Shown here piece after piece: positions 11,575-12,225 of a stretch of 64,000 bases of DNA. The stretch lies in contig OZ024743.1 in NCBI GenBank assembly GCA_964016885.1, positions 19,902,001 to 19,966,000 of the forward strand. The letters are read 5' to 3'. The notes under the pieces are model-generated. The model saw nothing but the letters and a program-made list of their open reading frames with translations. It was not told where the DNA came from and searched no databases. Made by a program: the position numbers and the translations under genes. This stretch comes from Eledone cirrhosa (taxonomy: Eukaryota). How positions within the stretch are numbered: position 1 is the stretch's first letter; every line of letters begins with the position of its first letter.

Positions 11575-12225
11575 ATATATGACAAGTAAGTATGTATTGA
11601 AACAGTGAGCAGGTTTGAAATTAGAAAATAGAATAGCTTTCATCGTATTTTTGACATAGGAAATTTTAGCCTGATAATGGGGTTTAGATCCCACAGATAA
11701 ATGGAAAAAGATGAGTATTGACGTACATGGGAGTCGAACCCACATCTTTGGTTAACCAGACCACTGTGCTACCATTACACCAACACATCACCCATCTGCT
11801 TCCATTCAAATTAGAAGCTACATTCTTAGCGAGTATAAATGACAAGTAAGTATGTTTTGAAACAGTGAGCAGGTTTGAAATTAGAAAATAGAATATCTGA
11901 GGGTTCTAAACCCCATTATCAGGCTAAAATTTCTTTAGTCAAAAATACGGTGAAAGCTATTCTATTTTCTAAATTCAAACCTGCTCACTGTTTCAAAACA
12001 TACTTACTTGTCATTTATACTCGCTAAGAATGTAGCTTCTAATTTGAATGAAAGGACATGGGTGATGTGTTGGTGTAATTGTAGCACAGTGGTCTTGATA
12101 ACCAAAGATGTGGGTTCGACTCCCATGTACGTCAATACTCATCTTTTTCCATTTATCTGAGGGTTCTAAACCCCATTATCAGGCTAAAATTTCTTTAGTC
12201 AAAAATACGGTGAAAGCTATTCTAT
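11575..12225. repeat. 260-bp unit in tandem and inverted arrangement between (TA)n tracts, containing a tRNA cloverleaf
   Basis: 11580 repeats at 11840, and 11894 repeats at 12154. The left block is the reverse complement of the right block. Confidence 0.9.
12064..12134 (+). tRNA. tRNA-like cloverleaf (Gln-like D arm, anticodon loop CTTGATA) followed by TTTTT; inverted copy at about 11720-11790 (loop CTGGTTA); probably a repeat-borne pseudo-tRNA
   Basis: Acceptor gatgtgt/gtacgtc, D stem gtgt/gcac, anticodon stem tggt/acca, T arm gtggg-TTCGACT-cccat. A and B boxes are present. Confidence 0.6.

Follow-up and report, generated by a model that had tools for sequence, protein, structure and literature searches.

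The stretch of DNA analysed here (the window, 64,000 nucleotides, C4:19,902,001-19,966,000 of the 3.0-Gb genome of Eledone cirrhosa) contains an insertion of a short repeated unit with a tRNA-like core (Table 1). Self-comparison of the window gave a unit period of 260 bp and inverted arms that are 95% alike, with (TA)n runs on both sides, which confirms the tandem and inverted 260-bp unit of the original prediction. The forward and inverted arms overlap by 2 nt (11894-11895). Both 71-nt cloverleafs were recovered with the Rfam tRNA model (47.1 and 49.8 bits for 12064-12134(+) and 11719-11789(-), respectively; cut-off 29 bits) and predicted as tRNA by ARAGORN, so that the two copies stand as claimed, the inverted one lying exactly at 11719-11789. 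To call all four stems paired was slightly generous, as the cloverleaf scores as a tRNA but has a G27.A43 mismatch in the anticodon stem and five G.U pairs. The A and B boxes were also found, the A box of the forward copy carrying G18>T. The T5, said to lie about 8 nt downstream, starts 9 nt past the forward cloverleaf and sits within a predicted 19-bp helix of leader and trailer that had been overlooked.

Table 1. Features of the insertion (positions within the window)
Feature	Position	Strand	Basis or remark
Whole insertion, two 5'-truncated arms head to head (tail-out) inside a (TA)n run	11574..12225		repeat and flank analysis
Inverted arm, 322 nt, 1.24 units (unit 253-260 + 1-260 + 1-54)	11574..11895	-	3' end coincides with the second of two fixed ends (unit position 54; 'tail')
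Forward arm, 332 nt, 1.28 units (unit 189-260 + 1-260)	11894..12225	+	3' end close to the first of these (unit 260 to 260+8)
One complete 260-bp unit, subfamily A	11966..12225	+	period and family consensus
tRNA-like cloverleaf, 71 nt	12064..12134	+	Rfam tRNA and ARAGORN
A box of forward cloverleaf	12071-12082	+	G18>T in this copy, versus family consensus
Anticodon loop of forward cloverleaf	12094-12100	+	
B box of forward cloverleaf	12114-12123	+	A58 at 12119
Second cloverleaf, within inverted arm	11719..11789	-	Rfam tRNA and ARAGORN
Purine-rich leader	12045..12063	+	predicted to pair with the trailer into a longer acceptor stem
Trailer, predicted partner of the leader	12137..12155	+	includes T5 at 12144-12148
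Predicted stem-loop around the first fixed 3' end	11947..11991	+	11947-11957 with 11983-11991
Tail, ~34-46 nt between the two fixed 3' ends	11574..11620	-	inverted arm only

The neighbours of the unit are remains of Penelope-like elements (PLEs), none of them joined to it. A 5'-truncated PLE with RT and GIY-YIG lies at 12292-14570 and has a tail-out inverted 3' end and a tail or forward extension of ~42 nt; a close relative with a longer frame was found at locus L305. Minimal type I hammerhead motifs are present at 11349-11371(+) and 10450-10428(-), in the 3' end of a neighbouring PLE, and are not detected by Rfam at gathering score. Other (TA)n-flanked tandem or inverted units occupy 5253-7311, 22481-23889 and 56584-57412 of the window and include a 591-bp tandem with 99% identity.

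A dispersed family with a tRNA-like core

The insertion belongs to a dispersed family that has thousands of unit ends and at least six subfamilies of 256-290 bp (A, 260; B, 290; C, 256; E, 267; G, ~286 bp; D was also separated). A first look across the genome gave 1,728 candidates for the unit. Exact matches of the subfamily 3'-end motifs, which count matches and not loci, number 1,092 for A, 1,248 for B (array copies included), 2,099 for E and 452 for G. Mean identity to the consensus is 96.0% in A-type copies, 97.2% in B and 89.9% in G. Duplicate loci were removed before counting; in the free-3'-end set of 324 records, a few B places remain in duplicate. The thousands of dispersed matches rule out a single-locus duplication of a tRNA pseudogene, the reading that the original prediction had set against its own. 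We detected no ORF in the unit.

Subfamily B also forms a head-to-tail array of ~950 units of 290 bp (C28:19,440,624-19,716,546, ~276 kb). It begins beside (TA)n, at the tRNA, and the ten 10-kb samples that touch it are all on one strand. Alleles near fixation in the array (315/321, 300/321 and 308/321 units) are rare or absent in dispersed B (2/64, 3/89 and 0/90, respectively), thus the array is derived and is ruled out as the master of the dispersed copies. Judging from these alleles, the array is a secondary satellite that arose from a single insertion; all 18 core pairs are intact in only 97/321 of its units.

The original prediction had contrasted variable anticodon loops with identical stems. 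The two window loops do differ (CTTGATA and CTGGTTA), but each is a single mutation away from the family consensus CTGGATA, thus giving no sign of a hypervariable anticodon, and the stems decay like the loops. Hypervariability is also ruled out by the 74 A-type loops, 44 of which read CTGGATA while 20 belong to one linked CGCGATA sub-lineage and 10 are near-singletons. Among A copies not chosen by their tRNA, with CpG and subfamily sites left out, differences from the consensus amount to 67/3,186 in stems, 11/371 in the anticodon loop, 37/1,610 in other loops and 402/20,502 in flanks (2.1% in stems, 2.3-3.0% in loops and 2.0% in flanks). By these rates, the tRNA core is evidently decaying neutrally within inserted copies.

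Since inserted copies are expected to decay in this way, the informative comparison is between subfamilies. With B and E copies picked by their flanks, A and E differ at 0/71 positions in the tRNA versus 19/153 elsewhere, and A and B at 0/56 positions in the core versus 19/153 elsewhere; for A and G the counts are 7/56 and 35/153, which is not significant (p 0.12). Judged on substitutions, the tRNA core is frozen between subfamilies, significantly so for A versus E and A versus B but not for A versus G. Stems that erode as fast as loops, which had been named as evidence against the prediction, are therefore seen within copies, and conservation of the core is seen between subfamilies. Of the four stem changes between A and G, three preserve the pair and one repairs the mismatch of A, and subfamily B breaks the acceptor pairs 1:72 and 2:71. 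Double-sided covariation was found in 0/21 cloverleaf pairs. The predicted 19-bp leader/trailer helix, T5 included, was equalled in length in 1/5,000 shuffles; G adds two bases per side, and E has a C.A mismatch and is without the outermost pair. Folding of the whole unit is unremarkable (z -1.4).

The consensus loop reads GGA (Ser) and is combined with a 4-nt variable loop, U37 and G27.A43. Together, a Ser anticodon, a short variable loop and U37 do not make a working tRNA: the anticodon does not match the body and position 37 is not a purine, as would be the case in a functional tRNA gene. The anticodon loop of subfamily G has GGC. Subfamilies A, B and E have A and B boxes that conform to the consensus, and G has T58. 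No close host tRNA that could be the parent was detected in the Rfam search (63 scored of 552,091 candidates). Neither a hammerhead nor another Rfam ribozyme was found in the unit: there are 0 CUGAnGA..GAAA cores on both strands of four subfamily consensus dimers, a like motif detecting the hammerheads of neighbouring elements, and the 84 Rfam matches obtained for four loci (E up to 1) include no ribozyme.

An unrelated second repeat (L133, L135-L143) also contains an internal cloverleaf, ~307 nt from a fixed end, with the majority anticodon GGC and a tRNA body that we take to be Lys-like. Its end is a 24-nt palindrome beside TA, with an inverted repeat ~1.2 kb further, and by this structure it looks like a DNA element and not a PLE. 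Two loci (L132 and L134, C1:243.65-243.68 Mb) are dense tRNA-Thr gene clusters with 7 and 5 tRNA genes within 3 kb.

Insertion structure and putative mobilisation by Penelope-like elements

PLE insertions are characterised by partial tandems, inverted 5'-truncated copies, a one-sided tail and microsatellite targets, as described by Craig et al. (PMC8557442). The A/B-type loci (n=190) of the family comprise 119 simple tail-out inversions, 57 single arms and 14 other or more complex cases, one of these tail-in. Partial tandems of 5'-truncated copies are present, and arms of at least one unit make up 16/133 in A. Two fixed 3' ends recur, site 1 at unit 260 to 260+8 and site 2 at 42-54 in A, and one arm ends at each of them in 100/127 A/B-type inversion pairs and in 21/31 of those in G. 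An A-rich tail is absent, and a target-site duplication would be invisible inside (TA)n; (TA)3 occurs within 25 nt of 444/547 free 3' ends (background 14%). The neighbouring RT/GIY-YIG element shows the same layout. In the account given by Frangieh et al. (PMC11167929), RT begins at two internal sites, the sequence between them forms the PLE tail, and cleavage affects both strands of the target. Tails measure 34-46 nt in A, ~39 in E, ~64 in B and 58-68 in G, those of B and G exceeding the published 30-40 nt, which counts against the PLE fit. Directly behind site 2, the G unit contains a TA-like spacer that resembles a captured piece of target (L375-L444).

A stem-loop at site 1 is kept in six subfamilies, with 96.6% of the cells paired and one U-A to C-G double change that, by the covariation tool's own caveats, lends weak support; it may be a candidate signal for the PLE reverse transcriptase.

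We consider it very likely that the family is mobilised, putatively in trans, by PLE machinery. The PLE-mobilised unit of the original prediction is thus well supported by the tail-out inversions, the two-site ends and the (TA)n targets, but no partner was found: no match to the unit was better than E 0.05 among 50 GIY-YIG loci and the window (50 of 150 scored, of 10,596 candidates), and PLE protein matches were absent upstream of 66 non-TA 5' ends. Nor is an RT ORF, for which a search had been suggested, joined to the unit in the window. GIY-YIG frames of 938, 844 and 1,096 aa at three loci (L295, L296 and L297) are candidate young autonomous PLEs and show no match to the 260-bp unit.

We propose that transcription of a tandem source, from the A/B boxes of the upstream unit or through read-through, would yield an RNA exceeding one unit in length, such that the downstream unit could be copied whole; the upstream flank would then travel with the tRNA because the upstream unit transcribes all of the downstream one. 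From the anatomy and the two-strand cutting reported for PLEs (PMC11167929), the PLE protein would cut both strands of (TA)n, and cDNA would start at the two internal sites beside the conserved stem-loop. In the insertions observed, each of the two sites marks the end of one arm, and the junction between the arms is head to head.

Truncation beside A58 and possible roles of the tRNA-like fold

In loci chosen by the 3' end only, 76/106 of the A arms that reach the tRNA stop at cloverleaf index 53-71, and none of the other 30 does so in the next 17 nt. By the same choice of loci, T-arm stops were counted in 27/46 arms of B, 20/26 of E and 9/77 of G. Per locus, truncation occurs in 89/120 for A/B/E (A58, cloverleaf index 56) versus 9/54 for G (T58; p ~1e-12), a p-value that overstates replication since the contrast comes from a single T58 lineage, which is older (89.9% vs 96-97%) and differs at two neighbouring T-loop bases as well.

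The A/B/E ends at index 36-71 (n=124) are found at 57-71 (115), 53-56 (8) and 41 (1), with the mode at a CATG palindrome where two cDNAs can anneal. Subfamily G has the same T stem and palindrome yet rarely stops there, which rules out the palindrome as the sole cause of the pile-up. When both arms of an inversion pair were scored, 23 pairs were stop/stop, 10 through/through and 0 mixed. Short and long copies have two polymorphisms in common, so the short copies do not descend from a single truncated master, which is thereby ruled out. Together, concordant arms and common polymorphisms suggest that the stop is a property of the template that tracks the T-loop state, and the 23 and 10 concordant pairs imply that a single kind of template likely serves for both arms of a PLE inversion.

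The modification m1A58 has been described as a strong stop for a retroviral RT (PMC8599865) and as being installed on pre-tRNA (10.64898/2026.05.17.725798). The stops 3' of A58 are a feature of A, B and E and not of G (T58), and the two arms of a locus agree. The simplest cause, which we regard as reasonably probable, would be m1A58 placed by the host on the RNA template and blocking reverse transcription at the T arm. That the unit RNA is treated as a tRNA at the T loop appears likely, with indirect support from the A58-dependent truncation. We looked for misincorporation at A58 in read-through copies and found no excess (2/85, 0/27), which counts against m1A58, and a T-loop cut or a tight elbow would produce the same truncation pattern. 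In G, a second pile-up of 5' ends is located at cloverleaf index 10-19, just 3' of G9 (17/46 arms; A, 1/25), for which m1G9 is a guess.

The 5' ends at the start of the tRNA bear on what the fold does. In A, 26/104 arms spanning the tRNA end at -5..+8, compared with 3-5 per 14-nt bin upstream (p ~1e-7); in B the figure is 12/69 and is not significant (p 0.13). The enrichment at +1 is as compatible with initiation by Pol III as with cleavage by RNase P. Behind the discriminator, where RNase Z would cut, 5' ends are not in excess (A, 9/115; B, 3/49; E, 3/29; G, 4/81), and the suggested release of monomers by RNase Z is not supported. The broader suggestion that the tRNA mimic does the job of the hammerhead is unproven.

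We rank a putative Pol III promoter first as the main role of the tRNA and give it about an even chance, since transcription from an upstream unit, as in Sm-alpha, explains why the leader travels with the tRNA. Against a promoter count the spread of G with T58 (a B-box mismatch), the T5 (T6 in G) right after the tRNA, the 78/104 A-type arms that extend upstream past +1 and the lack of a significant +1 excess in B. More speculatively, the leader/trailer helix might keep RNase P/Z away from internal cloverleafs and thereby preserve long templates.

Ranked second is the idea that the tRNA fold replaces the hammerhead, with RNase P cutting at +1, the helix juxtaposing the ends, a ligase closing a circle and the RT rolling round it. 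The 5' ends at +1 suit a cut as well as a start, and the 19-bp helix (1/5,000 shuffles; two more nucleotides on each side in G) needs leader and trailer in one RNA. Rare variants are common to tandem units of one arm (10/231 in A, 16/222 in B) and similarly to inverted arms (35/476 and 10/289), and far fewer are common to different loci (19/4,849 and 15/6,561), a pattern that tandem masters or local duplication also predict. G has retained the fold though its B-box A58 is lost. However, paired leader and trailer hinder RNase P, the RNase Z site has no excess of 5' ends in A, B, E or G, and the top of the acceptor stem is broken in B. Moreover, hammerhead cleavage was dispensable for PLE insertion in vitro in the experiments described (PMC11167929). 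We therefore think this route doubtful, and equally so the wider picture in which the family would be a ribozyme-free counterpart of retrozymes, with circles made by RNase P and a ligase and rolled by the PLE RT, and the genome a fossil record of methyl marks (m1A58, possibly m1G9).

The fold could instead serve RNA stability, export or host-factor binding, with transcription by Pol II read-through. This would agree with the T5/T6 directly after the tRNA, the spread of G without A58 and the conservation of the anticodon arm and helix, which lie outside the promoter; the consensus A/B boxes of A, B and E and the +1 enrichment in A make it improbable. It is very improbable that the tRNA was merely captured and has no role, or that the repeat is a satellite or DNA element spreading without an RNA step: stems, loops and flanks decay alike in copies (2.1, 2.3-3.0 and 2.0%) and the 276-kb B array exists, but this array is derived and not the source of dispersed B (array-private alleles), the core is frozen between subfamilies, and the two-site ends, together with a truncation that depends on one T-loop state, already largely refute it. 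A conventional tRNA-derived SINE moved by a LINE can hardly be entertained. The A/B boxes and the arms that start at the tRNA +1 recall one, but the tail-out inversions with two fixed 3' ends are the PLE two-site signature, there is no A-rich tail and the unit is circularly permuted. The original prediction, which had called the element unlike a SINE, was right here, as the tRNA is internal in arms that mostly continue upstream.

On balance, we favour, as somewhat more probable than not, a hammerhead-free non-coding repeat that PLE RT/GIY-YIG would copy in trans, with an A/B-box promoter and with m1A58 truncating most insertions.

Comparison with known elements

To our knowledge, short non-autonomous animal PLE passengers have so far been defined by hammerheads, and tRNA-promoter retroposons have been regarded as LINE passengers. 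The present family unites a complete tRNA mimic with PLE-type insertion and has no hammerhead. For PLE biochemistry, it offers a minimal template of 260 nt on which two start sites are mapped. If the A58 reading is true, a host RNA methyl mark limits the copying of a retroelement and can be read from genomic DNA alone, natural mutant control (T58) included. In the literature searched, which excludes most subscription papers, Repbase and supplements, we found no description of a tRNA-bearing, ribozyme-free PLE passenger. Many unclassified SINEs are listed without detail for an octopus (PMC13282606).

Tandem non-coding units, both dispersed and in long arrays, are shared with the animal non-LTR retrozymes, for which movement by PLEs has been proposed (PMC7229834; bioRxiv 10.64898/2026.07.22.740005). 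Retrozyme units are 170-400 nt long, compared with 256-290 bp here, but are defined by a type I hammerhead in every unit, which is absent from this family; the word tRNA does not occur in the main text of the preprint (10.64898/2026.07.22.740005). The non-autonomous Chlamys PLEs (MRC1) and Naiad PLEs show the same partial tandems, inverted 5'-truncated copy, one-sided tail and microsatellite targets and likewise have no canonical hammerhead. In the passages on them, no tRNA module is reported and the only mention of tRNA concerns selenocysteine (PMC8557442). MRC1-type elements resemble the 3' end of their partner (PMC8557442), whereas no such partner was present among 50 GIY-YIG loci here.

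The Sm-alpha and Sj-alpha elements of Schistosoma are also short, SINE-like and arranged in tandem, and they have a Pol III promoter (here putative); each unit is transcribed from the one upstream of it, and a solitary copy is a dead end. They carry a hammerhead, in contrast to this family, and the review passage on them mentions neither a complete cloverleaf nor a leader/trailer helix nor two-site ends of PLE type (PMC6765202). Poseidon PAc of Anolis has the same two internal RT start sites defining the tail, with both strands of an AT-rich target cut, but is autonomous, with an ORF and a hammerhead, according to the published text (PMC11167929).

The tRNA-derived SINEs (SINE2) are non-autonomous retroposons with tRNA-related A/B boxes. 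Such boxes are present in both (in G with T58), but this family has a complete cloverleaf inside a permuted unit and ends of PLE type, with neither a tRNA head at the 5' terminus nor a LINE-type 3' tail. Set apart by its lack of a hammerhead and of the head and tail of a SINE, the family behaves as a non-autonomous PLE does and is similar to retrozymes and Sm-alpha.
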